Assembly (NCBI GenBank): GCA_016875335.1 | Contig: VGRO01000004.1 | Span: forward strand, 32,158 to 96,157 | Direction of reading: 5' to 3' | Source of the DNA: Deltaproteobacteria bacterium | GTDB taxonomy: Bacteria; Myxococcota_A; UBA9042 | DNA: 64,000 nt | Program-made: the position numbers and the translations under genes | Shown here: positions 5,035-64,000 of the stretch, in pieces | How positions within the stretch are numbered: position 1 is the first letter of the stretch | Layout of the letters: the number at the start of each line of letters is the position of its first letter | Notes under the pieces: model-generated | Told to the model about the DNA's origin: nothing | Databases searched by the model: none | The model's input: the letters and a program-made list of their open reading frames with translations, nothing else

Positions 5035-5076
5035 GTCCCCAACGCCCCGCTCCGCGCATCCGCACGCAAGGTCCTC

Positions 5077-6456: not shown

Positions 6457-6528
6457 CCGGGCGCCCGCTGCCGCGGGACTGGTGCGACCCCATCGACAGG
6501 CGACCGCGGCCGTGGTGCAATTGGCGCC

Positions 6529-8262: not shown

Positions 8263-8359
8263 CACGGATCACCGGGAGGTTTGCTGGACAATGCACAGCG
8301 GCGGGCTACCTTGGCGCGCTCCGGCCCCTCCCCCACAACCGCCGGTTCCTGAGGATCTG

Positions 8360-8779: not shown

Positions 8780-8791
8780 CGTGCGGCCGGG

Positions 8792-10360: not shown

Positions 10361-10434
10361 GGTCGCTAGCCTAGCAAGCGGGACGCGTTGGGTGCAAGGC
10401 GCGGGTCCCTGTGAGAGTGCTGCGGCGCTGCCTG

Positions 10435-37516: not shown

Positions 37517-37583
37517 TGGTTCCAGGCGCGCGGCGATGGGGTTGTGGGCCGCGGGGCGCGCAATTGTGGCAGAGGTCGCGGTG

Positions 37584-39209
37584 GTGCAAAAGGGGTGCGG
37601 CGCGCAGTTCAGCCGGAGGCGTTCGGCAACGCGTGGGGCCTGCGCGGCGCTTGCGCTGGCGGCGTGGGCCTGTCCGGACCAGACGGCGGCCGATCCGATC
37701 GACGCATCGGAGGCAACGACCCCGACCGCGGACGACCCAGCGGACTTTGGAGGCGATGCGCCGACCGAGGCGCCACCGGCGGGCCCGACGCTTTTTTGGG
37801 GCGCGTGGGTGGGAGCGATCGGCGTCGACTTGGGCGCCGAGGATCCGGCTGAGGATGTGCTGACACTGCGCAACCGCCTGGAGTTGGACGTCCAGCATCC
37901 GCTGCCCGGCGGGCTGCAGACCCGGGTCAGCGCCAGGCTGCTGCACCGCGCCCAAGTCGGCCATGAGGGCGGCGTGCACAGACCGGCTTTTCGCGCAAGT
38001 CTGCCCGATCTGGGCATGCGCTACGACCTCGACAGCCAACTGCGCCACGCCCATGTGCAGTGGTCCGCCCCGTGGGGCCGGCTGACCGTCGGGCGCGACA
38101 CCGCCCAGTGGGGTGCGCTGGAGCTGCAGAGCGCGCTGCGCTTCTTGCAGCCGATGGATTTCAGCAACGGGCTGGTCGGCAGCCTCGCCAACCCGGACGA
38201 GTCCCCGCTCTTGCCCACGCTGATGGCGCGCCTGGAGCGTCCGGTCGGACCCGGCCAGCTCGACCTGGTGTTCCTGCCCTTCTTCGACCAGCACCGCTAT
38301 TCGCCGTTTGCCACCGACGCTGCGTTCGTGCGGCCTGGTCAGGGTCCAGAGCTTTCCGGGTCGATAGGGGCCGTGCTGCGGCGCCTCGACCTGCGGCTGG
38401 ACCGCCAGCTCTCGCAAGCCCTGATGATCGCACTGCAACCGCCGAGCGACACCCCGCTCGACGGCTCGCCGGCCGCGCGCTGGCGGGTGCCGATCGGTCG
38501 GTTCGACGTGGCCCTGGTCGCGGCCTGGACTTGGGATCGCCTGCCTGAGCTGCAATTGGACGCGGACCTGCTGCTGCTGCTGGCGCGCACCGCCGACGCC
38601 GGCTTCGACACAGCCCGGCTGGCGGCGATGTTCGCCGATCCGCAGGTGGCCGCCGCGGCCGACCGCGCCAAGGGCAAGTCGGTGCGCGATCTGGCCAAGG
38701 CGACCTGGCGCCGCCGTGGCATCGTCGGTCTGGAGGCCCAGGGTGAGGTGGCCGAGGGCTGGGTGGCGCGCGGCGAGCTGGCGTGGAGCCACCAGCGGGT
38801 CTTCATGGACACTGGGTTTCGGCCGCTGTTGTCGCCACTGGCCCAGGCCGGCGCCGGGCTGGAGCGCAGCTGGGGGGACCGCGTCGTCGCCCTGGTCGAG
38901 GTCGCAGGCCAGTGGGCCTACCGCGTGCCGGCGGACACGGAGCTGATGTTGGCGGCGGCGGTGCAATGGCAGGTGGGCGGCGGGGTCATCGTGCGGTGGG
39001 GTGAGGCCGACGCCTGGACCGGACAACTGGGCGGCACCTATGGCCTGACATTGCGCGACTGGGCCGTCGCGCCGCGGCTGAGCTGGCAAGCGGGTGATCG
39101 TTGGACTGCGGCGTTGGCCGCCGTGATCGCAGACGGACCGCCCAATTCCATCGGCGGCTGGTTCGGGGCGGACGATCAGGTGATCGTGGAACTGCGGCGC
39201 ACGTTCTAG
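37584..39209 (+). CDS. hypothetical lipoprotein, possibly an outer-membrane beta-barrel (C-terminal ...VELRRTF)
   Basis: Downstream part of listed ORF 35670..39209. Putative GTG start with ...RGACAALALAAWAC lipobox. Sequence is rich in W/Y/F and ends in Phe. The upstream part of that ORF is an antisense shadow. Confidence 0.45.
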   Translation: MQKGCGAQFSRRRSATRGACAALALAAWACPDQTAADPIDASEATTPTADDPADFGGDAPTEAPPAGPTLFWGAWVGAIGVDLGAEDPAEDVLTLRNRLELDVQHPLPGGLQTRVSARLLHRAQVGHEGGVHRPAFRASLPDLGMRYDLDSQLRHAHVQWSAPWGRLTVGRDTAQWGALELQSALRFLQPMDFSNGLVGSLANPDESPLLPTLMARLERPVGPGQLDLVFLPFFDQHRYSPFATDAAFVRPGQGPELSGSIGAVLRRLDLRLDRQLSQALMIALQPPSDTPLDGSPAARWRVPIGRFDVALVAAWTWDRLPELQLDADLLLLLARTADAGFDTARLAAMFADPQVAAAADRAKGKSVRDLAKATWRRRGIVGLEAQGEVAEGWVARGELAWSHQRVFMDTGFRPLLSPLAQAGAGLERSWGDRVVALVEVAGQWAYRVPADTELMLAAAVQWQVGGGVIVRWGEADAWTGQLGGTYGLTLRDWAVAPRLSWQAGDRWTAALAAVIADGPPNSIGGWFGADDQVIVELRRTF

Positions 39210-39401
39210 TTTCTTGCGGCCAGCCTCCGGCTGCTGCCGGCTGCCGCCGTCCAAAAAGTCAAACGCGCCCCCGGTCCAGGCCGCCGCCGCCTTTCTTTCG
39301 GAGGCGACGACGGTCGGATCGGTTGCGCGTTGATCGGCTGCGCCGCGAGTCCGGCCCTGCGGGGAGGCAGAGCCAGCCGTGGCCGTCGCGAGGTCGTGGG
39401 G

Positions 39402-39686
39402 CTACTTGATGTGCTCGACGCCCTGCTTCTCGACGGTGGCCTTCCACACCTTCTCTGGCAGCCACTTGGGGCGGTTCGCCGGAGCGGTGACTTCCTTGCG
39501 GCCGCCCTTGAACACGTGCACGCGCTTGGTGCCGCGCTCGCGCAGGCGGATTTCGGTGTAGCCGCGGGCGGCAGCCTTGAGCGCGGCGCCGCGCGGTTGC
39601 GCGTTGGAGAACACGATGTTGGTGTCCTTGCCGTTCTCCATCAGCACGAAGTTCTTCTTGTCCTTGGCGGGCTTGTCGTCGGCCAT
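39402..39686 (-). CDS. non-histone chromosomal protein MC1 family (archaeal-type) DNA-binding protein
   Basis: 95 aa from ATG 39686, with GGAGG 6 nt upstream. MADDKPAKDKKNFVLMENGKDTNIVFSNAQPRGAALKAAARGYTEIRLRERGTKRVHVFKGGRKEVTAPANRPKWLPEKVWKATVEKQGVEHIK aligns with Methanosarcina MC1 (KRNFALRD..G..HGVF.G.QPRQAALKAA.RG...IRLRERGTKKVHVF.G.R.EV..P.N.P.W.P). Confidence 0.7.
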   Translation of the reverse strand: MADDKPAKDKKNFVLMENGKDTNIVFSNAQPRGAALKAAARGYTEIRLRERGTKRVHVFKGGRKEVTAPANRPKWLPEKVWKATVEKQGVEHIK

Positions 39687-40314
39687 GTTGCCTCCAGTTG
39701 CTTTGGGACTGCATTGCGCGCAGTCAGTTGTGCGACGGCCGCGCGGGCGGCCTTCGGTCCAGATCACCTTGCCTGGGCGCACCGACGCCGGGGGAAAGGG
39801 CGCCCGTCGGGGGGCGACCCTGTCTTGGCGACAGTACGGCGACCCGCCGATCGCGCCTGGACGGACCGACTCCCGTCAGCCGGCCGCAGCGCTGGATCGC
39901 GGTCGCGGCGCGCATTGCGCCCTTGGCGCGCTGTATCGGCCGATTCGCGCAAGATTGCAAGGGGGCACGCGGCGCGGGGCGCAGATTCGCTCAAAAAAGC
40001 CGAGACCGGGTCTGGACGAGCGCAGTAGACGATAAGCGGCGCAACCTGCGATTCCATCGATATTACACGTATTTTAGAGTATCGTCTCCGGTGCGAGCGA
40101 CGCGAACAGGGCCGCTGTGGGGTTGTGATCACGATCCGTGCCACGTGATCACGGCCCGCGGCTCCGGCCTGCGCGGCATGGTCGAATCGCCAGCCGCCGT
40201 GCTACGGTCGCCCCATTGCGGCGCACCGCGCCCAGGGGATCGATCCTGCCCGTGTCCGCCGCCCGGCCCAGCGCGACGTGTTCCCCGAACCGGCTGCGGC
40301 GGTGGCTGGCCCGG

Positions 40315-45434: not shown

Positions 45435-45983
45435 GTGTCCACGCCGTTTCGCTGCCAAATCCGCCTCGTCCTTTCGGACCTCGACCGCAACGTGTTCGCA
45501 CAGCGCACGGTGGCGATGGCGCAGTTTCCCGACGAGCCCGATCAGCACGTGCTGTTGCGGTTCCTGGCGTGGGTGTGGTTCTACGACGAGGCGCTGCAGG
45601 ACGGCCAGGGTTTCCTCGACCAGACCCAGGCCGACCTGTGGGCCCAGGATCTGACCGGTGCACTGACGCTGTGGATCGAGTGCGGGCCGCCGCCGCTCAA
45701 GCGCCTGTGCAAGGCGCTGGGCCGATCGCGGACCGCCCGGTTCATTGCGCTGTGCGGCACCGAAAGCGAGGCCCGGGACCTGCGCAAGGCCTTGCGCGCC
45801 GAACGGCCGCGGCACCTCGATCGCGTCGAACTGTATTTCGTCGACAGCGAATTCCTGGATTGGTTGGAGAGCCACGGCCGCCGCAACATGGACTGGACCG
45901 CCACCTTGAGCGACGGCACGCTGTACCTGGACTGCGACGGCCACACCCACCAGTGCCTTTTGCACGCGGTCGCGGTTGCATGA
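45435..45983 (+). CDS. yaeQ: YaeQ family protein
   Basis: N-terminus ...RCQIRLVLSDLDRNVF...HVLLRFLAWVWFYDE... matches the YaeQ pattern (ATIYKAxLxLSDxDRxxY...RLLAWAxxxDE); 182 aa. Confidence 0.8.
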   Translation: MSTPFRCQIRLVLSDLDRNVFAQRTVAMAQFPDEPDQHVLLRFLAWVWFYDEALQDGQGFLDQTQADLWAQDLTGALTLWIECGPPPLKRLCKALGRSRTARFIALCGTESEARDLRKALRAERPRHLDRVELYFVDSEFLDWLESHGRRNMDWTATLSDGTLYLDCDGHTHQCLLHAVAVA

Positions 45984-46002
45984 ACCTCGCAACGGAACCC
46001 GT

Positions 46003-47187
46003 ATGAACGAGATCGTGTTCTTCCTCGAACGCCGCGAGGCCACCTACCTGGCGCGCCTGCGGGCGCTGGTCGACATCAACAGCGGCCTGGACAATCCGGC
46101 GGGCCGCGACCGCGTGCTCGACCACCTGGAAATCGGCTACAAGACCCTGGGGTTTTCCTGCGAGCGCGTGCAGCGCCCGGGCGACATGACCCACCTGGTG
46201 GCGCGCCGCCCGTCGACCAAGCCGGGGGCGACCAAGGTGTTGATCCTCGGCCACTTCGACACCGTGTACGATTCGACCAGTCCGTTTCAGACCTTCACCG
46301 AACAGGGCCCGTGGCTGGCCGGCCCCGGTGTCGGCGACATGAAAGGCGGACTGGTGGTGACGCAGGCGGCGTTGGACGCGCTGTACCATGTCGGCCACCT
46401 CGGCGATTTCGACTGGGTGTGCTGCCACAACGCCGACGAGGAGATCCAGTCGCCGACGTCGCGCGACCTCATCGAGCAGTGCGCCGCCGACCGCGACCTG
46501 TGCCTGGACTTCGAGATCGGCCGCAAGACCGGCGCTGTGGTGCGATCGCGATCGGGCGTCGGTCGGTTCTTCGTAACCGTGCACGGCAGGAGCGCGCACG
46601 CCGGCATGGACCACAGCGTCGGCGTCAACGCCATTGTCGGCCTGTCCAGGATCATCGTGGAGCTGGCGGAACTGACCGACCCGGCGCGCGGTACCACCGT
46701 CAACGTCGGCGTCGTCAAGGGCGGCACCAAGCGCAACGTCGTTCCCGACGAAGCCAAGGCTGAAGTGGACGTGCGCGTCCAGTCGATCGAAGAGGGCGAG
46801 CGGGTCGAGCGCCGGATCCGCGAACTGTGCGGCGGCGAGCCGGTGCCGGGGGCTCGCGTGGAGCTGCTGGGCGGCATCGGCCGGCCGCCGTGGCAACGCA
46901 ACCCGCTGTGCGACAGGTTGATTGCCCACTTCCAGCGCGTCGCCGACGAGCATGGCCTCGCGCTCGGCGCCGAAGACACCGGCGGCGGGTCGGATGCCAA
47001 CTTCACGGCGGCGCTCGGCATCCCGACCATCGACGGCCTGGGGCCGGTCGGCGAGAAACCGCACACCTTCGACGAGCGCATCCAGCGCCATTCGGTGGTC
47101 GAGCGCGCCAAGCTGGTAGCGCTGGCACTGCTGGCCTACAAGCCCGACCGCGACGGCACGCCGGTGGATCCCGGCGAGGTCAACTGA
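46003..47187 (+). CDS. M20-family metallopeptidase (carboxypeptidase G2/ArgE/DapE-like)
   Basis: Metal-binding motifs: ILGHFDTVY; GPGVGDMKGG; HNADEEIQS; HGRSAHAGMDHSVGVNAI. Confidence 0.8.
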   Translation: MNEIVFFLERREATYLARLRALVDINSGLDNPAGRDRVLDHLEIGYKTLGFSCERVQRPGDMTHLVARRPSTKPGATKVLILGHFDTVYDSTSPFQTFTEQGPWLAGPGVGDMKGGLVVTQAALDALYHVGHLGDFDWVCCHNADEEIQSPTSRDLIEQCAADRDLCLDFEIGRKTGAVVRSRSGVGRFFVTVHGRSAHAGMDHSVGVNAIVGLSRIIVELAELTDPARGTTVNVGVVKGGTKRNVVPDEAKAEVDVRVQSIEEGERVERRIRELCGGEPVPGARVELLGGIGRPPWQRNPLCDRLIAHFQRVADEHGLALGAEDTGGGSDANFTAALGIPTIDGLGPVGEKPHTFDERIQRHSVVERAKLVALALLAYKPDRDGTPVDPGEVN

Positions 47188-47205: not shown

Positions 47206-49590
47206 TTGGTTTGTGACGGTCCGTTTGCGCGCGCGGTCGCAGCCGCCAATACTGCCCGAGGACCCGCGCCGCCCCCGCCGGGAACCGCCAAGGAACGCGT
47301 GGCCACGGTCCTCTTGCTGCAACCGCCGATTGTGCTGCACGGCGCGTTCATCGACTACCCGTACTTTGCGAGCCTGGGCCTGTGGCAAGCGGCGGCGGCG
47401 CTGCGCGCGGCGGGCCACGCGGTGCAGGTGCTGGACGCGTTGTGCCAGCCGTCGTCGGGCCTGATCGCCGAAACCAAGGATTTGATTCGCCTGGGCATTC
47501 CGTTTTCAGGGTTCGTCGCAAAGCTGCCGCAGCCGGCTCCCGATGTGGTGGTGGTGGGCCACAGCCCATGGCTGCGCTCGCGGCCCGCAGCGGCGGAACT
47601 GCGCAAGCTCGCCCTGCACCTGCATCAGAAGTGGCCGGGCTCGCACCTGGTGCTCGCCGATTGCGACGTCGGCGGCATGCACTACATCGAGTGGGGAGAG
47701 GCCGAACTCGACGACCTCGGCTTTTCGTGGGGCTGCAAGTACGAGGCGGATGTGGCGTTGCCGGCGCTGGTGGCGCAGTTGGCGGCTGGCCAGGTGCCCG
47801 CGTCCCGCGTGGTGGTCGGCCCGCCGGGCGACGAGGCCTTGGACGGCCTGCCGCTGCCAGCCTACGACCTCGTGGACGTCGACGCCTTTGAGCGGTTCGC
47901 GGGCCGCGTCGCCAACGCCCGCCACAAGCAGGAGATTTTCGACCTGACCCCGCCGCTCATGGCGGTCAAGACCAGCCGCGGCTGCGTGTACCAGTGCAAC
48001 TTCTGCACGAGCAACCCTTGGCAGCGCGCGGGGTTGGCGGGCAAGGCCTACCGGCGCCACAGCCCAGCACAGCTCGACGAGCACGCGCGCTTGCTGGCGG
48101 AACGCTACGGTGTGCGGCGCTGGGTGGTGCTCGACGAACTGGTCAACGTCCATCCGGGCCACTTCGACGCGCTGCTCGACGTCGCCGAACGCCACGGCTT
48201 GCGCCTCGATTTCCCCAACGGCATGCGCGCCGACCGGCTGACCGAGGCCCAGGTGGCGCGGCTGGCCCGGTTGTGCCCGCTGCTGTCGATCTCGGCGGAA
48301 TCGGCCAACGCCCGCGTGGCCAACGAGGTCATCGGCAAGCGCTTCGACCTGTCGGCGACCGAGCGGGTGGCTGGCTGGTGTCGCAGCCACGGCCTGCGCC
48401 TGGTGGTGCACTGGATGATCGGCCAGCCGAGCGAGACCAAGGCCGAGATCAAGCGCACGCTGCAGACCGCGTGGGACCTCTACGAGGGGTTCGGGGCGGA
48501 GCCGCTGGTGCAATTCGCCACGCCGATCCTCGGCACGGTCCTGCACAAGACGGCGACCGACCGGCAACTGTGGACGACGCGCGAGGATCGCGACATCGGG
48601 CCGCTTTTCCAAGGCCGGCCAGTGCTGCGCGGACCCGATTGGGGCCCGGCAGACCTATGGGCCTACAAGCGCGTGTTCGAGACCCGCCTGGCCATGCACC
48701 GGCCGCGCAAGGTCATCGTCAACACGACGTATGTGTGCAACAACCACTGCGTGTTTTGCGCGACCGGCAACCGCAGCGACTGGCACGGCGACACCGACAA
48801 GCAGATCGCCTTTTTGGCCGAACGACGCGCCCAGGGGTTCGACCTGTGCGACTTCGACGGCGGCGAGCCCACCACCAACCCGCGGCTTTTCGAGCTCATC
48901 CGCGCCGCGCGGGGCCTGGGCTATCAGCAGGTCAACCTGACCACCAATGGCCGGATGATGGCGCTGCCGCGCAATGCGGAAAAGGTGGTGCGATCCGGCA
49001 TCACCTCGCTCTTGGTGTCGCTGCACGGCCCCAACGAAGCCGTGCACGAAGAAAACGTGCAGGCCAAGGGCGCGTTCGCCCAGACGATCTCGGGCATCCG
49101 CAATGCCCGGCCGCTGTGCGACGCGACAGGCGTCGAGTTCGGCGTCAACGTCACCTTGACCAAGGTCAATACACCGGTGCTCTTGGAGTACGGCCAGCTT
49201 CTGGTCGACCTCGGCGTCCGGCTGTGCAATGTGCAGTTCTTGACGCCGTTTGGCCGGGCGAGCGCCGAGTGCCAGCCGGACCCGGCGGTCGCCGCGCAGT
49301 TGGTCATGCGGCTCATCGACCAGTTCGGCGACAAGATCCGGTTTCAGGTCATCAATCTTCCGCTCTGCTACCTGCCCGGCTACGAGGAATTCGGGCTGAG
49401 CGACATCGGCAAGCTGCAGCGCCATATGATTTTTGTGTCGATGGACGACGTCAACCTGTTCGACTACCTGCAGAGCCGCCGCCGCCACGAGAAAGCGTGC
49501 GAGAGCTGCCCGATGGCGGTCGCGTGCGAGGGCTTCTACTACTGGCCCGACCAATGGAAGGACGAGGCGCGCGCGCGTTGGGGCGACTGA
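47206..49590 (+). CDS. fused double radical-SAM enzyme: N-terminal B12-binding-like domain plus radical-SAM core 1 (CVYQCNFC), then radical-SAM core 2 (CNNHCVFC) with C-terminal Cys cluster (SPASM/twitch-like)
   Basis: Two CX3CX2C motifs: SRGCVYQCNFCTS (about aa 262) and VNTTYVCNNHCVFCATG (about aa 515). The N-terminal VATVLLLQPPIVLHGAFIDYPYFASLGLWQAAAALRAAGH resembles a class-B rSAM B12 domain. C-terminus ...KACESCPMAVACEGFYYW. Confidence 0.75.
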   Translation: MVCDGPFARAVAAANTARGPAPPPPGTAKERVATVLLLQPPIVLHGAFIDYPYFASLGLWQAAAALRAAGHAVQVLDALCQPSSGLIAETKDLIRLGIPFSGFVAKLPQPAPDVVVVGHSPWLRSRPAAAELRKLALHLHQKWPGSHLVLADCDVGGMHYIEWGEAELDDLGFSWGCKYEADVALPALVAQLAAGQVPASRVVVGPPGDEALDGLPLPAYDLVDVDAFERFAGRVANARHKQEIFDLTPPLMAVKTSRGCVYQCNFCTSNPWQRAGLAGKAYRRHSPAQLDEHARLLAERYGVRRWVVLDELVNVHPGHFDALLDVAERHGLRLDFPNGMRADRLTEAQVARLARLCPLLSISAESANARVANEVIGKRFDLSATERVAGWCRSHGLRLVVHWMIGQPSETKAEIKRTLQTAWDLYEGFGAEPLVQFATPILGTVLHKTATDRQLWTTREDRDIGPLFQGRPVLRGPDWGPADLWAYKRVFETRLAMHRPRKVIVNTTYVCNNHCVFCATGNRSDWHGDTDKQIAFLAERRAQGFDLCDFDGGEPTTNPRLFELIRAARGLGYQQVNLTTNGRMMALPRNAEKVVRSGITSLLVSLHGPNEAVHEENVQAKGAFAQTISGIRNARPLCDATGVEFGVNVTLTKVNTPVLLEYGQLLVDLGVRLCNVQFLTPFGRASAECQPDPAVAAQLVMRLIDQFGDKIRFQVINLPLCYLPGYEEFGLSDIGKLQRHMIFVSMDDVNLFDYLQSRRRHEKACESCPMAVACEGFYYWPDQWKDEARARWGD

Positions 49591-52097: not shown

Positions 52098-53678
52098 ATG
52101 GCCGACCCGCCCCCCGACCTGACCGCCCGACCCCAGCGCCTCGACGCCGCACTGCCGTGGCTGGCGGGCGTGCCGTTGTGCGCGCTGGCCTTGCAACCGA
52201 TCTCCGATTCCGACGTGCCGATGCATGCGGCGGTGGGCCGGTGGATGCTGCGGCAGGGCGCGATCCTGCCCACGCCGGACCCGCTGGTGTGGACCGACCG
52301 CGGCGGCGATGCCCCGCACGAGTGGCTGGCGCAGGGGGTGCTGGGCGCCGTGGCCGATGCTGCAGGCCTTGGTGCGCTGCGCATGGTGTTGCTGGCGCTG
52401 GCGGTCGGCTGCCTGTTGCTGCTGGCGCGATCGCTGCGCCGGGCGGGCGCGGGACCGGCCGCGACGGCCGCACTGCTCGTCGGCTGGACTGCCGCCGTCG
52501 CCCCGCACCTGGCGATGCGCCCGCACGTGTTCGGCTGGTGGGCGGCGCTGGCGGTCCTGGGACTCGGGCTGGCCGACCCGCGGCCGTGGTCGCTGCGCTG
52601 CGCGGTCGGCTGGGGCGTGGCCACGGCACTGTGGGCCAACCTGCACAGCAGCGCGGTCGCGGCGCCGTTGTATGCCGCGCTGGCCTGGGTGGACGCCGCC
52701 TGGCATGCCCGCGCCGACCTGCGGGGCGCCTGGTGGCGGCAGCCGACCCTGCGCTGGATCGCGGTCGCGGCGGGCGCCCTGTGTCAGCCGCTGGGGCCGG
52801 GCATCGTCCCCTACGTGTTGCGCTCTCAGGCGATCAACGGCCCGTTGAGCGACGAATGGCAGGGGCTGTTGCGCGCCGACGTGTTGCGCGATCACCCGCA
52901 GGTCGTCGCCGTATGGGCCGCGGCGGCCGTCGCCGTGGCGATGGCGCTGCGGACACCGCGACTGTCGTTTCCGGGGGTGGTTGCTGCCGCATTCGCCCTG
53001 GCACACGCAGCGTGGACCCGGCGCATGACCGTGTTCCTGTTCGTGCCGGCGTTGCTGGCCGGCCGGCGCTGGGGCCAGTGGCTGGGCTGGCGGCCGCTCG
53101 CTTGGGTCGCAGTCGCCATGGCGTGGGCGGCGTGGGTGCCAGACGCGGTCCAGCGGGCATGGTCGCTCCCGGCGATCGACGGCCGGGTGTTCCCGGTCAA
53201 GGCGGCGGCGTTCCTGCACCAGACTGGGCTGCGCGGCCGCCTTTTCAACCCCGACCCCTGGGGCGGCTACCTCAGCTGGCAACTTGCACCGCAGTACCAG
53301 GTGTTCCTGGACGGCCGATGGCTGCTGGCCGGCGAGCAGGTGGTGCGCGACGGCCTGGCGATGCAGATCCGGCGGCCAGGTGTGGACGCGTTGTTCGAGC
53401 GCTACGGCATTGAGGTGTTCTTGCAGCGCACGGCCGACTACGTGCAGGTGCCGCCGCCCGACCCGACCCGCTTTGCCCTGGCGTGGCGCGACGGCCAGGC
53501 CGTGGTCCTTGTGCGCAAAGGTCCGAACTGGATGGACAATGTCGCCAAGGTCTGTGCGTTCTATCGCAGTTTTGCGTGGCTGGCGCCGCACGGGCGATGG
53601 GCGGGGTCGCTGCGCGGCGCTGCGGGCCAGCCCAGCCCGACCGACGTGCCCGAGGTCATGGCCGGCTGCGGGCCATAG
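52098..53678 (+). CDS. polytopic integral membrane protein, GT-C-like (putative polyprenyl-phosphate-sugar-dependent glycosyltransferase)
   Basis: Start MADPPPDLTARP at 52098. At least 10 hydrophobic helices. An acidic first-loop motif (PISDSDVPMH) resembles GT-C DD/DE loops. Convergent with the DprE1-like gene. Confidence 0.45.
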   Translation: MADPPPDLTARPQRLDAALPWLAGVPLCALALQPISDSDVPMHAAVGRWMLRQGAILPTPDPLVWTDRGGDAPHEWLAQGVLGAVADAAGLGALRMVLLALAVGCLLLLARSLRRAGAGPAATAALLVGWTAAVAPHLAMRPHVFGWWAALAVLGLGLADPRPWSLRCAVGWGVATALWANLHSSAVAAPLYAALAWVDAAWHARADLRGAWWRQPTLRWIAVAAGALCQPLGPGIVPYVLRSQAINGPLSDEWQGLLRADVLRDHPQVVAVWAAAAVAVAMALRTPRLSFPGVVAAAFALAHAAWTRRMTVFLFVPALLAGRRWGQWLGWRPLAWVAVAMAWAAWVPDAVQRAWSLPAIDGRVFPVKAAAFLHQTGLRGRLFNPDPWGGYLSWQLAPQYQVFLDGRWLLAGEQVVRDGLAMQIRRPGVDALFERYGIEVFLQRTADYVQVPPPDPTRFALAWRDGQAVVLVRKGPNWMDNVAKVCAFYRSFAWLAPHGRWAGSLRGAAGQPSPTDVPEVMAGCGP

Positions 53679-55149
53679 CCACCGCTGGCGCCACGGCCCG
53701 CCGCCACTGCGCCGATTGCAGCACGCCCGCGGGGTCGCAGTGCTGCTGCCAAGTGGCCCATTGCAGCAGCCGGTCGGGCCCGAACATCGCCAGCACGGAC
53801 TCGGGTCGCACGGTCGCGTCCTTGGCGAAATAGACCCGGCCGCCCGCCGCAGCCACCAGATCATCCATGTCGTGGCACAGTTGCCACAGCGCGGCCCGGT
53901 TGGCGGTCGTCACCGCGAAATCCTGGGCCAGCGAGTAGCCGTCCAGGCCGTGGCTGAGCAGAAAGCGGTCGGCGCGGTGGCGCTTGACCACCGACAGCCA
54001 GTTGACCAAACCGCGGCGTTGCTGCATTTCCAGCAGCGCCTGAAATACCGCGCGGGCGCGATCGGCCGGCACGAAAGCCTGGTGCTGGATGAGGCCGCCC
54101 GGGCTGTACACCTTCTTCCAATCCGGCACGTAGTCGAGCAGGAAATGGAAGGCGCCATGGGTTTGGCGATAGCGCTTGTCGCGCGCCAGCAACACGCCCG
54201 ACCACCAGCGTCCGAGGTTGACAAGACGCATCCCCCTTGGGTTCGAGAACGGCTTGAGAAACCGCCACATCCACGCCTTGGGTACGACGCCGAACAAGCG
54301 GGTCGGAAGTTGCTGGCTGTGGACTTGGAGAGCCTGGCCGGTGTCTGCCTCGTCGCCGGCGTGCAGATGGTAGGCGGCATGAATCAGGCTGCGGCCCAGG
54401 CCCTTGCCGGTCGCGAAGGCGTCCAGCCACGCGACCAGGTAGTCGGCGCTGGCGGCGTGCCGTTCGAAAAACCCAAACAGTCCATCGAGGTCGGGCGCGG
54501 TGGTCGCCCACACGTCCAGACGCGCGGCCTCGACGCGCTTGAGTTGCAATTCGACCTCGGTGATGACCCCGAGCGTGCCGGCCCCCGACACCACCGCAAA
54601 GAAAAGCGGGTCGGCCGGCGTCAGTTCCCGGTGCTCGCCGGACGGAAAGACGACTTTGATCGCAAGCAGATGGTCGCCGATGGGCCCCACGCGAAACGCG
54701 TTTTTGCCGTGGATGTTCATCGCTGCGGCGCCGCCCAGCGTCGGCGCCATGGTCCCCGAGACCACCGGCGGCCACCAACCGTGCGGCACCGCCGCCTGCC
54801 AGATCTGTTGCAACGTCGCGCCAGCCTGCGCCCGCACCACGCCGGTCGCGGGGTCGAAGCGCAAGATGTGGTCCATCCCCGACAGGTCGATCACCACATC
54901 GCCGTACGCCGCGTCGCCGTACGAACAACCCCCGCCGCGCAAGGCCACGGTGCGGCCGTGGTGCCGCGCCCAGTCGAGAACGGCCGCCGCGGACTGCGGG
55001 TCGTACAGCCGCACCACATCGGCCGGCCCGCCGACCGCCATGCCCCAACCCAGCACGGTCTGGCGCGCGGAAACGATGGCGTGCACGGTCAGATCGCCAG
55101 CCGGCGGAACACGATCGACGGGATGCACCGCACGATGGCCATGATCCAC
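53656..55149 (-). CDS. FAD-dependent oxidoreductase, DprE1 (decaprenylphosphoryl-beta-D-ribose 2'-oxidase) homolog
   Basis: ...QTVLGWGMAVGG...ALRGGGCSYGDAAYGDVVIDLSGMD...GWWPPVVSGTMAPTLGGAAAMNIHGKN... aligns with M. tuberculosis DprE1 (LTGWGRTAPS...ARGLGRSYGDNA...GLVIDMT...VTVGGAIACDIHGKN). The start may be the GTG at 55086, which avoids overlapping the SDR gene. Confidence 0.75.
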   Translation of the reverse strand: MDHGHRAVHPVDRVPPAGDLTVHAIVSARQTVLGWGMAVGGPADVVRLYDPQSAAAVLDWARHHGRTVALRGGGCSYGDAAYGDVVIDLSGMDHILRFDPATGVVRAQAGATLQQIWQAAVPHGWWPPVVSGTMAPTLGGAAAMNIHGKNAFRVGPIGDHLLAIKVVFPSGEHRELTPADPLFFAVVSGAGTLGVITEVELQLKRVEAARLDVWATTAPDLDGLFGFFERHAASADYLVAWLDAFATGKGLGRSLIHAAYHLHAGDEADTGQALQVHSQQLPTRLFGVVPKAWMWRFLKPFSNPRGMRLVNLGRWWSGVLLARDKRYRQTHGAFHFLLDYVPDWKKVYSPGGLIQHQAFVPADRARAVFQALLEMQQRRGLVNWLSVVKRHRADRFLLSHGLDGYSLAQDFAVTTANRAALWQLCHDMDDLVAAAGGRVYFAKDATVRPESVLAMFGPDRLLQWATWQQHCDPAGVLQSAQWRRAVAPAVAMARSRP

Positions 55150-55826
55150 CGATAGCCCCAGTGCACGTACACGGTGTGTTCGCCGCGCGCGATCGCCCGC
55201 GAAATGCGCCGGGCTGCAACCTCCGCCGACACCGTGAGCGGCAACTTGCGTGCACCGAGCATCGGCGTTCGCACCGGCCCCGGCTTGACGGTGACCACCT
55301 GCACGCCGAGCACGGAAAGGCGATTTCTTAGCGATTCAAGATAGGTATGCAGCGCCGCCTTGCTCGCGCCATACGCCGGGGCCTGGCGGCGGCCGCGGTC
55401 GCCGGCGACCGATCCGATGCCACACAGCACGCCCCGGCCCTGGTCTGCCATGTGTGCGGCGCCGAGGTTGAGCCACGCCATGGCGCCGATGACGTTGACT
55501 TCGATGATGTGCCGGTCCTTGGCGATGGCGAATTCGCGCGGTCCTACCTCGGTCATCACGCCTGAACTGTAGACCAGCGCGTCGCAGCCGCCGAGTTCGC
55601 CGAGCAACGTGTGCCAGCATTCCGCCACCGCAGCTTCATCGACCGCGTCGCAGGTGCGCACGACGGCTTTTGCGCCGCGTGCGGTGACCGCGGTAGCGAT
55701 GTCGTGCAATTCGGTTGCGCGGCGGGCGACCAGGCCCAAGCTGCGCCCTGGCCGGGCCATCTCGACGGCCAAGGCGGCGCCGATCCCCGACGAGGCGCCC
55801 ACGATGACGATGCGCTGTAGTTCCAT
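55089..55826 (-). CDS. short-chain dehydrogenase/reductase, DprE2 (decaprenylphospho-2'-keto-ribose reductase) homolog
   Basis: VIVGASSGIGAAL Rossmann motif; YGASKAAL catalytic Y-x3-K. The C-terminus ...VYVHWGYRWIMAIVRCIPSIVFRRLAI matches the DprE2 C-terminus (...[27 protein letters not shown]). Confidence 0.75.
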   Translation of the reverse strand: MELQRIVIVGASSGIGAALAVEMARPGRSLGLVARRATELHDIATAVTARGAKAVVRTCDAVDEAAVAECWHTLLGELGGCDALVYSSGVMTEVGPREFAIAKDRHIIEVNVIGAMAWLNLGAAHMADQGRGVLCGIGSVAGDRGRRQAPAYGASKAALHTYLESLRNRLSVLGVQVVTVKPGPVRTPMLGARKLPLTVSAEVAARRISRAIARGEHTVYVHWGYRWIMAIVRCIPSIVFRRLAI

Positions 55827-55889
55827 GGAGGTCCCGGGCCGCCGCAGCGGCTGCTGGGCGCGGATTGCACGCCGGTCCCTGCCTCCGTG

Positions 55890-56648
55890 TCAATGGCCCG
55901 AGACGGCCATGGCCTTGCGCACCAACAGCGACAGCGCCGCGCCGAGCAGCAGCCAGTGCAACAGGCGCCGAAATGGCTCGGGCGCGATGCGCTGGTGGGC
56001 GCTGTGTCCGATCCACTTGCCGAGAACCAGACAAGGCAGCAACGCGGCGCTGCCGCGCAAGGTCCGCCCGTCCAACTGGCCGAGCGAGGCGTACTGCGCC
56101 ACCAGCACCGTGCCGAGCACCAGCCACAGGGCCGACAGCGTGGCGCGAAGGGCCGATTTGTCTTGCAGTTGCCGGCTGGTCGCCCACACGATGAGCGGTC
56201 CACCCGACCCGTACAGGCCGTGCACCACACCGCCGCCCACCAGGCCCGCCCAATGCGCAACAGGCGACGGCGCCTTGGCGGAGCTGCCCCGCACCAGTTC
56301 GAGGGCCGCCAGGACCGCCACCAGAACGGCATAGGCGAGCACCAGCCACGGCCCTGGCGGCGCGACCCGGTACACGACGAGGCCGACCACCATGCCGGCG
56401 CCGATGGCCGGCAGCATCGTTCGTGTCAGCAACGCCTGCGAGACGTGGCCGCGGTCGCGCACGGAAATCCAAAGTGACAGCAACAGGTTGACCGGAACGT
56501 ACAGCGGCAGCAGCGCGTCGAGCGGCAAGAACTGTGCGCCCAACGTCACCGTGATGACCGTGCCGCCAAACCCGGTCAGCGCCTCGGCCGCGAACGCCAG
56601 GGCCACCACCGCAAACAGCGGCGCCGGCAATTCGAAAGGCGCGGGCAT
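55890..56648 (-). CDS. TauE/SafE (DUF81) family anion-exporter membrane protein
   Basis: Two-repeat 4-TM architecture with glycine-rich motifs (EALTGFGGTVITV; GLVGGGVVHGLYGSGGPLIV). Confidence 0.7.
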   Translation of the reverse strand: MPAPFELPAPLFAVVALAFAAEALTGFGGTVITVTLGAQFLPLDALLPLYVPVNLLLSLWISVRDRGHVSQALLTRTMLPAIGAGMVVGLVVYRVAPPGPWLVLAYAVLVAVLAALELVRGSSAKAPSPVAHWAGLVGGGVVHGLYGSGGPLIVWATSRQLQDKSALRATLSALWLVLGTVLVAQYASLGQLDGRTLRGSAALLPCLVLGKWIGHSAHQRIAPEPFRRLLHWLLLGAALSLLVRKAMAVSGH

Positions 56649-56651
56649 GGA

Positions 56652-57989
56652 TCAGCGCGCGCCGGGATCGTCCAGCGCATCGAGGAACCCGACGATGAGT
56701 TCGGCGGCCATGCCGCGATCGGGCAGGCTGCCCATCATGCCGTACATGGCCGCCTGGCCGTCGTCGGCTGCGGGCATGCCGCGCACCTCGTCGGCGCTCC
56801 GGCGCAGATCGGCGAGGAAGGCCTGGACGTGCGGCGCATGGGCGGCGGTGATCATGGCGTGCAGCGCTGGCGGCAGTTGCTGGCGGTCGAGATGCCAGCC
56901 TCGCGCCTGCATGGCGTCGCCCAATCGATAGACATCGCCGTCGTCCATGGTGAAGGCGAACACAGTGGCGTCCGGTGCGCCGAGCACCCGCAGGCCAGCA
57001 ATCGCCGCGATACCGTCCATCATGGCCCGGGCAGCGGCGAGGCTCCCGCGTGCCAGGCCGAGGTAACCGTCCTGGCCCAGGTGGTGCAGGACCGCCCATG
57101 CGGCCGCGATGGGGCCGCCGGGCCGGGTGCCCGCTGCCGACGGTGACCCCCACAGACCGCCCGGCCAATCCGCGTGGCCCATGAACTGATGCTTGCGCAA
57201 CTCGCGATCGCGGTACAGCACCAGCGACGCCCCCTTGGCAGCGTAGCCGTACTTGTGCAGATCGCACGAGATCGAGGTGACGCCGGGCACAGCGAGGTTC
57301 CACGGCGGCAGGGTCCGACCGTGCTCGGCATCCAGCACCCCGACGAACGGCAGGATCATGCCACCCAGGCATGCATCGACGTGGCACAGGGTTCCGTGGG
57401 CGCGGGCCAGCGACGCCAGTTCCGGGATGGGATCGATGACGCCGTGCGGATACGCAACGGAGCTGCCAACCACCAGCACGGTGCGGTCGGTGATGAGTTC
57501 GGCCGCCGCCGCGGGGTCGGCGCGAAAGTCGGCCCGCAGCGGCACCCAAATGGGCTCCATGTCGAAGTAGTGCGCGGCCTTGACGAAGGCAGGATGCGCG
57601 GTCGTCGGCAAGAGCAACTGGGGATGGCGAATGCCCTTTTCTGCGCGCCCCCAGTCGCGGGCGGTCTTGCACGCCATCAACACCGATTCGGTGCCGCCCG
57701 AGGTCAATGTGCCGACAGCATTGGGGTCGCCGAGCAGACCCGCGGCGATGCCCAAAACCTCGGTCTCCATCTGGCGGAGACTCGGAAAGGCCATGGGATT
57801 CAAGGCGTTTTCAGAGAAGCACCGCAAGAAAGCCGCTTCGAGGACCGCCTTGACGTCGTCACCCGCATGGTAGACCAAGCTGAAGGTGCGACCGTCGCGC
57901 CAGTTGGCGTCGCCGGATCGGTAGCGATCGATGGTGGCGAGCACACGGTCGGCCGGCCACCCCGCGGCGGGCAAGGCGTCGATGGACAT
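56652..57989 (-). CDS. PLP-dependent group II decarboxylase / sphingosine-1-phosphate-lyase-like enzyme
   Basis: Fold-type I PLP motifs (TSGGTESVLMA; SISCDLHKYGYAAKGAS with the PLP Lys); 445 aa. Confidence 0.7.
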   Translation of the reverse strand: MSIDALPAAGWPADRVLATIDRYRSGDANWRDGRTFSLVYHAGDDVKAVLEAAFLRCFSENALNPMAFPSLRQMETEVLGIAAGLLGDPNAVGTLTSGGTESVLMACKTARDWGRAEKGIRHPQLLLPTTAHPAFVKAAHYFDMEPIWVPLRADFRADPAAAAELITDRTVLVVGSSVAYPHGVIDPIPELASLARAHGTLCHVDACLGGMILPFVGVLDAEHGRTLPPWNLAVPGVTSISCDLHKYGYAAKGASLVLYRDRELRKHQFMGHADWPGGLWGSPSAAGTRPGGPIAAAWAVLHHLGQDGYLGLARGSLAAARAMMDGIAAIAGLRVLGAPDATVFAFTMDDGDVYRLGDAMQARGWHLDRQQLPPALHAMITAAHAPHVQAFLADLRRSADEVRGMPAADDGQAAMYGMMGSLPDRGMAAELIVGFLDALDDPGAR

Positions 57990-58168
57990 GGCGTTCCTTG
58001 ATGAATCGGGTCGTTGCAGCAGCCCGGCGAACTGCCGACGGCAAGGGCTGAAGGCGGGGCCATGCTGCGTTCAGAGAACCAAGCGCGGCCTGCACGCCGC
58101 GTTCGGCCGCACCGTCCGCGACCGGGCGATTGTACACACCCACCTGGTCGGCGCAAACGTTCTTATTT

Positions 58169-59562
58169 TCAAGGCTTGTTCTGCAGTCTGCCGGCCGCCA
58201 CCTGGGACATCGCGCTCGCGCACAAGGCGAGCAACAGCGGGTCGAGGTAGGCGCGGAATCGATAGTTCTCTCCATGTTCCAAAGTGTTGCCGACTGCAGC
58301 GACCCACAGCGTGGTCCATGCCGCGACGGCGAGCACCGCCAACTCTGGTCGGTGCGGTCCGGCGCGCAGGGCACGTGACAAGCGGGCGGCCAGGATCGCC
58401 AGCGCCACAAGCACACCAAAGGCCAGCACCACTGGCGCCCCGTCGAGTTCGACCAGGGCAAAGCGGGTCCAAGCCACGTGCAGGTCGTCGATCGGCTGTC
58501 GCGCCGGTCGCAAGAAGGGATAGACCCCCACAGGCCGCAGCCACGCAAGCCACGAACCCAAAAGCGCCCGCGCCCAGGCCGCCGGTTCGGCCGCGTAGAT
58601 CGCGATGGCATCCGCAGCCATCTGCCGCGATACATCGATGTAGGCGACGTGGTTGAAGTTGGGCGCGCCCGAGCGCTTGTGCACCGCGCACAGGGCGGGG
58701 TGCGGATCCCGGCACGGCAGCGGCGGCGCCACATAGGCTGTCAACTCACGGAAAGGGCCGATGGCGCCAAACCGCGAAATACGCCCCTGGTCGGCCAGTG
58801 CGCTGCGGACCTGCGGCGAACTGTGGGCGTGCGCGGTGCGCAAAAGACTCATCCCCGCCCATGAGCTGGCGTTGGGGCTGCCAAACTGCGCCAGGTTCTT
58901 GGCGTATGGCAGGACCATCAGGCCGATCGCGACGCTGGCTGCCGCCCAGATGCGGCGGCGATCGGTCGGGTGGCACCAAGCCGCGAGCGCGAACAGGCCC
59001 ACCGCCCACAGCGGATGGAACAGGCTGCGCAGCCAGCCCAAGGCGACGACGACGCCTGCGACGGCCATCCAACGGCGCAGCGACGTCTGCACTGCGGTCG
59101 GCACGAGCCAAATCAGCGCGGTCACCAGCAAGGTCACCGGCAGGTCGTAGAAAAGCCAGTGCGCAAGGAGCCAATAGCCAGGACTGGCCATCAGCAGCGC
59201 CCCGGCCAGCCAGGCCGTGCGCGGTCCAGCGCCCAAGCGCAACGCCAATCTCCAGGTCAGCAGTCCTCCGACCGCGCCCATGGCGTCCAGGCCGAGGTGA
59301 ACGACCCAACCCTGCGGGTCGATGCCGCCGGCCAACAGGGCAGCCACAGTCGCGTTGTACAGCGGCGGCTGGGCGTGCAGGCGCCACAGCGTTCCCAGCG
59401 GGTCGGCGCGGAGCCATGCAACGTCGACGAGTTGCCAGGTGCGGTCGAGCGGTGCAAAAACGCCGACACCGCGGTGATGGACGAAGGCACAGAGGGCGAC
59501 CCACAAGGCGACCAGGCCGAGCGCAGGAAGCCAGGTTGTTCGAACACGTTCGCTGGGCGTCA
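58169..59562 (-). CDS. polytopic integral membrane protein (GT-C/DUF2029-like; putative glycosyltransferase)
   Basis: Start MTPSERVRTTWLPALGLVALWVALCAF at 59562, with GAGGGGG upstream. At least 10 TM helices. It lies in the same minus-strand gene string as the DprE2/DprE1 homologs. Confidence 0.45.
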
Positions 59563-61158: not shown

Positions 61159-61407
61159 CCGAATCACGTTCGTCGCGCGATCGAAGCGCCTGCAGGCGGA
61201 TCGCGAGCGCGCCCGGAGCGACCGAGCCAGCAGCACACCTTTGCGGACGGGGAGGACGCAAGCAGCGAGATGCCAAGGATCTTCGGCCGCAGCAGGACGG
61301 GGTTTCGGCTGCACCCTCCAGGATGTTGTCATTGAACTGACGCGCGCCGCCGCGGTTTGCCCAGGATCTCTTTTGCGCTACGGTAGCCGCCTGCGCAGGG
61401 GGCGACC

Positions 61408-64000
61408 ATGGCCAACGACGACGACAAGACCGACCCATCCGCGGCACCGCCAACCATCTCACCAGCCGGTCAACGCCGCCGCGACAAGTACTCATCCACG
61501 CTAATGTTGACTCCGGGCATGGTCGATTTGCCGCCCGAGATGATCGCGCGCATGGCCATCGCCCAAGCCAGCGTGCCGCAAGCGACTGCGCAGGTCGACG
61601 CGGCAGCGCGGGTAGCGCGCGAACGGGAACGCCTGGAACTGGCGAGCAAGCGCAAAGTGCACTGGCGGCGCTGGGGACCCTACGTGTCCGAGCGTCAGTG
61701 GGGGACGGTGCGCGAAGACTACTCGGCCGACGGCAATGCGTGGTCGTATTTGCCTTTCGATCATGCCCATTTGCGTGCGTACCGCTGGGGCGAGGACGGC
61801 ATCGGTGGTCTGTGCGACAACCGCCAGCGGCTGTGCTGGGCCCTGGCGCTGTGGAATGGCAAGGACCCGATCCTCAAGGAACGCCTTTTCGGCCTCGCCG
61901 GACCCGAAGGCAACCACGGCGAGGACCCCAAGGAACTGTACTGGTACACCGATGCCCTGCCCAGCCACTGCTACGGCAAGATGGTGTACAAGTACCCGTG
62001 CGAACGTTTTCCGTACGAGGCGCTGCGGGCCGAGAACCGCCGCCGCGGCAAACTGGACCCCGAGTTCGAGCTGCAGGACACGGGCGTTCTGGACCATGGC
62101 TACTTCGACGTGGTCATCGAGCACGCCAAAGCCGACGTCGACGACGTGTTGCTGCGGGTGACCGCGACCAACCGGTCGAACGAACCGCGCACGCTGCACT
62201 TGCTGCCGACGGTCTGGTTCCGCAACACCTGGTCGTGGGACCACGGTGCGGCCAAGCCGGTCCTGGCCAAAGGGCCCACGGACGCCGCGGTCGGTCGCCT
62301 GGACCTGGACCACCCGACGCTGGGCAAGCGCTGGTACTACGTGCAAGCACCAGGGTCGTGGTTGCTGACCGAAAACGAGAGCAACGGTGAACGCCTCGGC
62401 TGGTGGCCCGCGCTGCAGCCGCGCGCCCACTACAAGGATGCCTTTGCCGACGCGGTGTTGCACGACGACTTGGACGCCTGTCACCCACACAGCGGCACCA
62501 AGGCCGCCTCCTGGCATGTGCTGCACCTGGCGCCAGGGCAGACCCAAGTGGTGCGCTGCCGGCTGTGCGATCAGCCAACCGAGGCGCCTTTTGCCGAGTT
62601 CGAGGCGGTCTTCGCCGAGCGCACGGCCGACCTCGACGCCTACTACGCCGCCGTCGGATCGACTGGCATGACCGAGGACGAGACGCGGGTGTTCCGCCAA
62701 GCGTTGGCCGGGTTGCTGTTCACCAAGCAGTATTACGGTTTCGACCTGCGGCGCTGGTTCGACGGCGATCCCGCCCAGCCCAAGCCGCCAGAACGCCGCA
62801 AGCAGGGCCGCAATGCCCACTGGCTGCACCTGCACCACGACGATGTGCTGTCGATGCCTGACAAATGGGAGTACCCGTGGTACGCGGCATGGGACCTGGC
62901 GTTCCATTGCGTGGCGTTCGCGCTGGTCGACGCCGACTACGCCAAGCGCCAACTGCGCCTGATGCTGCGCGAATGGTACATGCACCCCAATGGCCAGATC
63001 CCGGCCTACGAGTGGAACTTCGGCGACGTCAATCCGCCGGTCCACGCCTGGGCGGCGTGGCGCGTGTACAAGATCGAGCAGCGCGCCACCGGCAAGGGCG
63101 ACACCGACTTTTTGGAGAAGATTTTTCACAAGCTGCTCATCAACTTCACCTGGTGGGTCAACCGCAAGGATGCCGAGGGCAACAACGTCTTCGAAGGCGG
63201 TTTCTTGGGGCTGGACAACATCGGCGTCTTCGACCGTTCGGCGCCGCTGCCCAACGGCGGACGCATCGAGCAGAGCGACGCCACCAGTTGGATGGCGATG
63301 TACTCGTTGAACCTGCTGGCCATTGCCCTGGAACTGGCGCGCACCAACAAGGCCTACGAGGACGTGGCCAGCAAGTTCTTTGAACATTTCATGTACATCG
63401 CCGACGCGATGCGCACGACCCACCTGTGGGACGACCAGGACGGGTTCTTCTACGACGTGTTGGCGCTGCCCGGCCACCAGAAGATGCCGATGCGCGTGCG
63501 CAGCATGGTCGGCCTCATCCCGCTCTTCGCCGTCGAGACGATCAGTGACGGCGTGCTGGAGAAGTTGCCGCGTTTTCGGACGCGCCTGCAGTGGTTCCTC
63601 GACAATCGCCGCGACCTGCACCAGACCGTCAGCCAGATCGCGCAGGTCAACGACAAGGGGCTGCGCCTGCTCAGCGTGCTCGACGAGACGCGCCTGCGGC
63701 GTATCGCCCAGGTCATGCTCGACGAAGCGGAATTCCTCAGCGATTACGGGGTGCGCAGCTTGTCGCGCGCCCACAGCGACCGGCCCTATGTGCTGGTGCT
63801 CGACGGATCGCGCCACGAAGTGCGCTACGACCCGGCCGAGTCGTCCACCGGCATGTTCGGCGGAAACAGCAATTGGCGCGGGCCGATCTGGTTCCCGGTC
63901 AACTTTCTGGTCATCGAGGCGTTGCAGCGCTTCCACTACTACTTTGGCGATCGCGTCCTGGTCGAGATGCCGAGCGGATCGGGCCATCGCGTCAACCTCG
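61408..64000 (+). CDS. MGH1-like glycoside hydrolase (GH63 / six-hairpin glucosidase family), 3'-partial; runs off the window end
   Basis: My own translation from ATG 61408 (AGGGGG RBS 7 nt upstream) stays open for >860 codons to the window end: MANDDDKTD...[55 protein letters not shown]...[67 protein letters not shown]... These are typical GH63/MGH1 motifs. It is not in the ORF track because it has no stop. The listed minus ORF 61501..63987 is its antisense shadow. Confidence 0.65.

Follow-up and report, generated by a model that had tools for sequence, protein, structure and literature searches.

Does a gene pair related to the mycobacterial enzymes DprE1 and DprE2 make a lipid-linked D-arabinofuranose (D-Araf) donor in a Gram-negative bacterium, and do the membrane proteins encoded on both sides of it use this donor? 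The question is raised by a stretch of 64,000 nucleotides from Deltaproteobacteria bacterium (Myxococcota_A; assembly GCA_016875335.1, contig VGRO01000004.1, positions 32,158 to 96,157), which we will call the window. The best-known D-Araf glycans are those of the mycobacterial cell wall, and DprE1 is a leading drug target there; DprE1 and DprE2 (Rv3790 and Rv3791) form the decaprenyl-phospho-ribose 2'-epimerase. In the window an oxidase dependent on flavin adenine dinucleotide (FAD) and a short-chain dehydrogenase/reductase (SDR) are encoded side by side, flanked by two membrane proteins with the glycosyltransferase-C (GT-C) fold, GT-C1 and GT-C2. The best explanation of the whole, to which we give a probability of about one half, is a DprE2/DprE1-type epimerase with the flanking GT-C proteins as candidate transferases. 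Its first part is the stronger one: the pair probably makes polyprenyl-phospho-arabinofuranose from a ribose precursor. That GT-C1 or GT-C2 uses this donor is a more tentative proposal, to which we give somewhat less than even odds.

The FAD protein carries most of the evidence. The window has about 69% GC, so genes were picked by their GC content at the third codon position (GC3), which backs every gene named in a preliminary description of this locus, made from the letters and open reading frames alone. The FAD gene lies at 53656..55086 on the minus strand. At its longest the reading frame is 53656..55149, and an exact database look-up of this 497 aa form gave no match. Translation probably starts at the GTG at 55086; the resulting 476 aa form is the database copy, 100% identical to protein P0001, whose NCBI name is merely 'FAD-binding oxidoreductase'. 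The protein matches Pfam FAD_binding_4 (E 3.4e-31), and its best family by far is the NCBIfam DprE1 model NF053785, with 265.8 bits against 45.6 bits for the next family. This alignment is full-length (protein 29–484 versus model 2–446 of 449 positions) and covers both the FAD_binding_4 domain and the DprE1-type substrate domain. Among solved structures the closest is that of M. smegmatis DprE1 (4aut, E 1.3e-51, 31% identity, residues 27–484). No characterised family other than DprE1 is similar to the protein over the full length; with lactone and alditol oxidases the similarity is confined to the FAD domain. The motifs LGWG, RGxGxSYGD and HGKN, which the preliminary description had named, are all present, and HGKN is kept together with the QxQ and catalytic lysine motifs. 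The equivalents of M. tuberculosis H132, K134, Q334, Q336 and K418, which line the active site in published DprE1 structures, are identical in the FAD protein and invariant in 33 members of its clade.

The SDR gene (55089..55826, minus strand, 245 aa) ends 2 nt before the GTG start of the FAD gene, and neither product has a signal peptide. The protein is a classical SDR: it matches adh_short (E 5e-36) and has the motifs GASSGIG (GxxxGxG) and S...YGASK (S...YxxxK). Its family is less clear from scores. The generic models PRK07102 (192 bits) and PRK07024 (167 bits) outscore the DprE2 model NF053786 (126.4 bits), and the top PDB match is clavaldehyde dehydrogenase. However, its alignment with M. 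tuberculosis DprE2 (21gq_C; residues 4–245 versus 10–254) runs from one end to the other, and only DprE2 aligns through to the last residue, tail included. The tail had been pointed out in the preliminary description, and it is indeed there: IVRCIPSIVFRRLAI in the SDR and VLRHIPRSIFRKLPI in M. tuberculosis DprE2, in accordance with the C-terminal pattern ...R-x-[IL]-P-x-x-[IL]-F-[RK]-[RK]-L-x-[ILF]. It is kept in all three clades of these SDRs, including those of plasmid clusters linked to UbiA. The typing as DprE1 and DprE2, as opposed to alditol oxidase or generic FabG, holds for both proteins.

Pairwise comparison separates three clades, an actinobacterial one, an alphaproteobacterial one and that of the window, which are 27–37% identical to each other; identity within the window's clade is 44–57%. 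In this clade the gene order is SDR then FAD, the reverse of M. tuberculosis and of the plasmid clusters. Among 8000 candidates scored, more than 5500 homologs of the FAD protein have E <= 1e-10. A scan of species-representative genomes confirmed at least 579 relatives in at least eight phyla, including Myxococcota, Leptospira, Armatimonadota, Chloroflexota, Kapaibacteriota, Sumerlaeota and Planctomycetota. Since there are thousands of homologs across phyla, the early statement that such modules are rare finds no support, and pentofuranose systems have already been called widespread (PMC11127046, 2024). We searched the literature for this SDR-FAD clade and found no paper on it. One member, L018 (L numbers are our labels for loci; contig CAMDBH010000011.1), is labelled 'MAG: Klebsiella pneumoniae'; it has a Myxococcales-type SDR/FAD and Wzx/Wzy locus with 59% GC and an FAD protein 54% identical to that of the window, and the bin is probably mislabelled or contaminated.

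We studied the surroundings of the pair in the best 80 of the at least 579 relatives, drawn from Myxococcales and the other groups named above; with L004 there are 81 loci, and 76 entered neighbour clustering. In 56 of these 76, across phyla, the SDR gene directly precedes the FAD gene, and clustering found nothing else conserved beside the FAD gene. In a bulk Pfam survey of neighbour representatives the matches listed (25 of 100 families) include no UbiA, GtrA or GT-C family; those with more than one representative are GT4-type glycosyltransferases, Wzy_C, Amidohydro_2 and TPR repeats only. With BLAST and a purpose-built profile, a UbiA gene was found adjoining the pair in two of the 81 loci, both in Armatimonadota. 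In L060 it overlaps the stop codon of the FAD gene and its product reaches 260 bits with NF008977, the model for decaprenyl-phosphate phosphoribosyltransferase (cutoff 234); in L080 the order is UbiA-SDR-FAD in the same operon. The different arrangements argue for functional coupling and against inherited synteny. Because these two members of the clade share an operon with a UbiA of the phosphoribosyltransferase type, the role in lipid-linked D-Araf synthesis that was proposed at the outset is still the best hypothesis for the pair.

Other surroundings speak for this role as well. GT-C proteins of the PMT_2 type immediately adjoin the pair in Leptospira and in one Kapaibacteriota genome (77.8 bits in the latter). 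In Myxococcales relatives with about 56% identity the pair lies inside a GT4/Bac_transf/Wzx/Wzy polysaccharide locus. Large polytopic membrane proteins are enriched near the pair: 37 of 465 genes within five genes, against 1 of 396 farther off. A 567 aa neighbour without Pfam match in the Myxococcales locus L004 was considered as a relative of GT-C1 or GT-C2, and no relation was found.

We propose the following mechanism. The SDR and FAD genes would be translationally coupled, and their products would form a two-step epimerase of the DprE2/DprE1 type. The flavoenzyme would oxidise the 2'-hydroxyl of polyprenyl-phospho-beta-D-ribofuranose to a 2'-keto intermediate, which the SDR would reduce from the opposite face to give polyprenyl-phospho-beta-D-arabinofuranose on the cytoplasmic side. 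What we have shown is the homology of the proteins, their conserved catalytic residues, their folds and the linkage of their genes; the substrate, the product, the coupling of the donor to a transferase and the acceptor are inferred. The ribosyl-lipid would come from a phosphoribosyltransferase of the UbiA type and a phosphatase, and a transporter would then flip the donor; all of them would be encoded elsewhere in the genome. GT-C1 and GT-C2 would be the best candidates for periplasm-facing transferases of D-Araf onto an envelope glycan or protein. A sphingosine-1-phosphate lyase (SPL) homolog and a TauE-family permease, encoded in the same string of genes, would form a separate module.

How does the locus compare with known systems? 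As in mycobacterial DprE1/DprE2, to which both proteins are homologous over their full length, the oxidase has the HGKN, QxQ and catalytic lysine motifs, the SDR has the tail, the genes are adjacent and apparently coupled, and signal peptides are lacking. It differs in several respects: the oxidase is 31% and the SDR 31–36% identical to the mycobacterial enzymes, both fall under the NCBIfam equivalog cutoffs, the clade is a separate one, the gene order is reversed, and serine and alanine stand in the oxidase for N385 and C387. To call the two proteins close homologs, as was done at first, was therefore an overstatement. Because of the serine and alanine, covalent inhibition of the benzothiazinone type, known from DprE1 pharmacology, would not be expected for the oxidase. 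Equivalents of Rv3806c, Rv3807c and Rv3789 were not found near the pair.

Alphaproteobacterial plasmids carry clusters with the order UbiA-GtrA-FAD-SDR-GT-C (Paracoccus sp. AK26 pAK3 and Rhodobacteraceae SC52 pSC52_3). Their layout is presumably that of the D-Araf loci of Azorhizobium (noe) and P. aeruginosa PA7/Pa5196. Like the window, they have a DprE1-like oxidase and an SDR with the DprE2 tail beside GT-C-sized membrane proteins in a Gram-negative host. Unlike the window, they encode both a GtrA flippase and the synthase in cis, the synthase being a UbiA to which a further N-terminal domain is fused; the FAD gene precedes the SDR gene, identity to the window proteins is 31–35%, and their GT-C-sized proteins have no sequence similarity to GT-C1 or GT-C2. 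A third comparison is with the three-component pentofuranose glycosylation of Citrobacter youngae O1/O2, which consists of PPPRS, a flippase and a GT136 GT-C, with auxiliary epimerases as an option (PMC11127046). The concept is the same, with a lipid-linked pentofuranose donor, an optional epimerase to change the sugar and a periplasmic GT-C. In C. youngae, however, the epimerase is a single GalE-like SDR which makes xylofuranose, and the synthase and a MATE flippase are in the same locus (PMC11127046), whereas the window has a DprE1/DprE2-type pair and only the epimerase and GT-C components.

GT-C2 (52098..53678, plus strand, 526 aa) converges with the FAD gene, and the two share 23 nt at their 3' ends. 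GT-C1 (58169..59563, minus strand, 464 aa) is encoded on the strand of the SPL gene, 180 bp upstream of it; it had been given as 58169..59562, which is out of frame. Both belong to small unannotated families, with 33 homologs found for GT-C2 and 22 for GT-C1. The GT-C fold proposed for them at first is well supported by AlphaFold (AF2) models, with pLDDT 90.8 and pTM 0.90 for GT-C2 and pLDDT 90.2 for GT-C1, and every top fold match is a GT-C enzyme. In a Foldseek search of the PDB the top 25 matches of GT-C2 are all of this type: AglB (8.5e-5), ArnT (8.9e-5), STT3, AftA, PglB, EmbB and AftB. In sequence, neither protein could be placed in a defined family, such as PMT_2, GT39 and GT83 or the arabinosyltransferases of GT53, GT85, GT87, GT89 and GT136, by search of Pfam and NCBIfam and by comparison with the plasmid GT-C-like proteins. 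GT-C2 has no match in Pfam or NCBIfam. The only family signal of GT-C1 is a distant one to PMT_2, a broad mannosyl/ArnT-like family (21.3 bits, under the cutoff of 26.1). Their profiles are unrelated in sequence to each other (hhalign probability 0.7%). Each has conserved carboxylates: D39 of GT-C2, just past the first transmembrane segment, is found in 27 of 27 sequences, with D61 and E75 also carboxylates there, and D/E47 of GT-C1 in 21 of 22. These residues probably sit in the first extracytoplasmic loop, which was placed from predicted secondary structure and not from model coordinates. Other invariant residues of GT-C2 are R141-P142-H143, W179, N181, H183, R308, D405 and R407.

Several observations weigh against an arabinose-donor epimerase served by these GT-C proteins. 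The FAD protein is below the curated equivalog cutoff of NF053785 (500 bits) and the SDR below that of NF053786 (250 bits), as it is also for PRK07102. The serine and alanine at the N385 and C387 positions are invariant across the clade, which is only distantly related, at the 27–37% identity given above, to the clades with a canonical context. The preliminary description had already stated that a phosphoribosyltransferase of the Rv3806c type and a phosphatase are not in the window, and rightly so: neither a Pfam search of every GC3-supported gene nor six-frame searches with BLAST and hidden Markov models (HMM) gave a UbiA in the 64 kb, and Pfam gave no phosphatase in the window. Nor does any window gene match the GtrA, SMR or MATE flippase families. 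In 79 of the 81 clade loci there is no nearby UbiA by BLAST and the purpose-built profile. HMM searches found no sequence relation of GT-C1 or GT-C2 to the proteins of GT-C size in the canonical plasmid clusters, and with the membrane neighbours of the pair in Leptospira, Kapaibacteriota and Myxococcales the hhalign probability is below 10%. Among the loci of GT-C1 and GT-C2 homologs examined elsewhere none is beside an SDR/FAD pair. In L012, a relative with 69% identity, GT-C is absent and an aldehyde dehydrogenase takes its place, while SPL-TauE-SDR-FAD is kept. Finally, a terminator-like hairpin is found between GT-C1 and SPL, although this is weak evidence. The sole transporter noted as an option for the flippase is TauE, which travels with SPL; we have rejected it for this reason.

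In another reading the pair is a true ribose-to-arabinose lipid epimerase and the GT-C proteins are mere neighbours. The true arabinosyltransferase, synthase and flippase would then be elsewhere, and GT-C1 and GT-C2 would use other polyprenyl-phosphate donors, for example mannose, glucose or a sugar of the aminoarabinose type. We consider this unlikely, although it is the most serious competitor. The linkage of GT-C to the pair is conserved no further than a relative with 83% identity. The GT-C1 homolog of GCA_016218865.1 is on a different contig from the pair, and homologs of GT-C2 with 33–49% identity are found in unrelated contexts. The PMT_2 signal of GT-C1 would fit such donors, and most phyla have the pair as an orphan unit of two genes amid housekeeping genes. 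On the other hand, two GT-C genes less than 5 kb from the pair are improbable by chance, and GT-Cs recur beside it in Leptospira and Kapaibacteriota. The neighbourhood also has a glycan theme, because a GH63-like enzyme is encoded in it. The 83% relative differs from the window in two genes: in L002 (5977–6891, 15543–16415) it has an extra 304 aa gene without Pfam match, which lies between those of GT-C1 and SPL, and a gene with a VanW domain after that of a 798 aa protein, both of which are missing from the window (compare window positions 57990–58168). The 304 aa gene was considered as the missing UbiA, and it matches neither Pfam nor the PPPRS profile.

The remaining two genes of the string form a unit of their own. 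The gene at 56652..57989 (minus strand, 445 aa) had been read as a lyase or decarboxylase dependent on pyridoxal phosphate. The gene is real and its identity can be sharpened: it codes for an SPL homolog, which matches the enzyme of S. thermophilum (PDB 3mad, E 2.7e-108, residues 5–439, with the HKYGY lysine motif included) and human SGPL1 (E 1.8e-107). The homology is strong; the window protein is without the N-terminal membrane segment of about 70 residues. Its TauE neighbour starts 3 nt past the SPL stop codon (55890..56648, minus strand, 252 aa) and is separated from the SDR by 63 nt; Pfam agrees with the first assignment to the TauE/SafE (TSUP) permeases (TauE, E 7.9e-19, 68.7 bits). Unlike the entries for the S. 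thermophilum and human enzymes, the SPL homolog is coupled to this permease, and the pairing recurs in metagenomes. We sampled 80 metagenomic SPL-like loci, 65 of them informative, and a TauE-family gene is directly downstream of the SPL homolog in 14 of the 65. The unit is present at 55890–57989 (minus strand) in the window and in L094, L103, L105, L107, L111, L118, L122, L124, L131, L133, L147, L152 and L156. We found no described function for the SPL-TauE pairing.

SPL probably shares an operon as well as the strand with the pair, and the genes that had been joined into one module are real and on the same strand. TauE and SPL are not parts of that module, since they recur independently of it. 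A DprE1-like gene is found near SPL-TauE only in the lineage of the window: of the 81 genome loci 78 have the pair and no SPL, and the other sampled loci with SPL-TauE all lack the pair. Because each occurs without the other in nearly all sampled loci, SPL-TauE and SDR-FAD are autonomous modules of two genes each, and only the window, L011 and L012 have them joined. In L012 (Myxococcales bacterium Baikal-deep-G136, 3991–13012) one strand has SPL, TauE, an unknown protein of 288 aa, SDR, FAD and aldehyde dehydrogenase; upstream there is a class I/II aminotransferase in divergent orientation. This string resembles a lipid-catabolic rather than a glycosylation context.

It is therefore conceivable that in this lineage the pair serves lipid metabolism together with SPL-TauE and not glycosylation, by oxidising and re-reducing a secondary alcohol on another amphiphile such as a long-chain base or a sphingolipid-related intermediate. 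This minority reading stays alive because the string of L012 ends in an aldehyde dehydrogenase, which with the aminotransferase would fit the breakdown of long-chain bases to a fatty aldehyde and then to the acid. The genes SPL-TauE-SDR-FAD are on the same strand with short spacers in three genomes with FAD proteins 69–100% identical, the homology of SPL is very strong, and the substitutions at N385 and C387 permit an altered pocket. We nevertheless find it improbable. The independence of the two modules stands against it, and elsewhere the only recurrent functional partners of the pair are the phosphoribosyltransferase, GT-Cs and polysaccharide genes. Moreover, we know of no DprE1-family enzyme which acts on sphingoid substrates. 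The idea of an unrelated FAD oxidase of the alditol or lactone oxidase type next to a generic FabG-like SDR by chance, which could appeal to the scores under both cutoffs, the two generic models ahead of DprE2 and the clavaldehyde dehydrogenase match, is effectively refuted by the full-length lead of more than 200 bits for DprE1 over families which cover the FAD domain only, by the family-specific tail and by the adjacency of SDR and FAD across phyla.

We thus retain the DprE2/DprE1-type epimerase with candidate GT-C transferases. The locus would be an incomplete example, with epimerase and candidate transferases only, of a type of pathway already described as widespread, and its interest lies chiefly in a clade which is very common yet uncharacterised and in the two GT-C families. 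A wider proposal is doubtful, although it deserves mention: the clade with SDR before FAD could be an unrecognised lineage of lipid-linked D-Araf synthesis in many phyla, mostly unlinked to its synthase, and GT-C1 and GT-C2 could found two new families of arabinofuranosyltransferases. In that case D-Araf glycans would be widespread beyond Actinobacteria, in Leptospira, Armatimonadota, Chloroflexota, Kapaibacteriota, Planctomycetota and Myxococcota, and two small unannotated families would gain a testable function. If the clade makes the lipid-linked donor, D-Araf would be a common decoration of the envelope among environmental bacteria and in Leptospira. A bolder version is that the operon fusion with SPL-TauE, and with aldehyde dehydrogenase, ties arabinosylation to sphingolipid turnover in this lineage. 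The clade also supplies natural variants of DprE1, with serine and alanine at the positions of N385 and C387.

Some other genes of the window deserve a comment. The gene adjoining GT-C2 (49613–52009, minus strand) codes for the 798 aa protein, the N-terminus of which (...AAWMGVLGC) we read as a lipoprotein signal. It has no sequence match in Pfam, NCBIfam or PDB, and it is 86% identical in the relative L011. At 47206–49590 (plus strand) we find a long protein (763 aa as called in relatives) with two radical-SAM regions; the N-terminal half resembles B12-binding radical-SAM proteins and the C-terminal half HxsC/NirJ. It is adjoined by an M20 peptidase and a YaeQ protein (45976–47187 and 45435–45983, both on the plus strand), and the 83% relative shares this gene order. 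At the other side of the string, GC3 indicates that the glycoside hydrolase of the GH63/MGH1-like type on the plus strand (61387–63999), which runs past the end of the window, is a real gene, and that the 828 aa open reading frame on the minus strand (61501–63987) is probably spurious.

Farther from the pair, a protein of 2144 aa with Dictyostelium-type CTDC repeats is encoded at 10435–16869 (minus strand). A protein of 848 aa with an AdoMet-decarboxylase domain and one of 523 aa with a spermidine-synthase domain are close to each other on the minus strand (36708–39254 and 33960–35531). At 39402–39782 (minus strand) a protein of 126 aa matches the non-histone chromosomal protein family MC1 (Pfam PF05854, E 1.3e-28). 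This family is best known from archaea of the Methanosarcina type; the contig which carries the match otherwise looks bacterial and Myxococcota-like.

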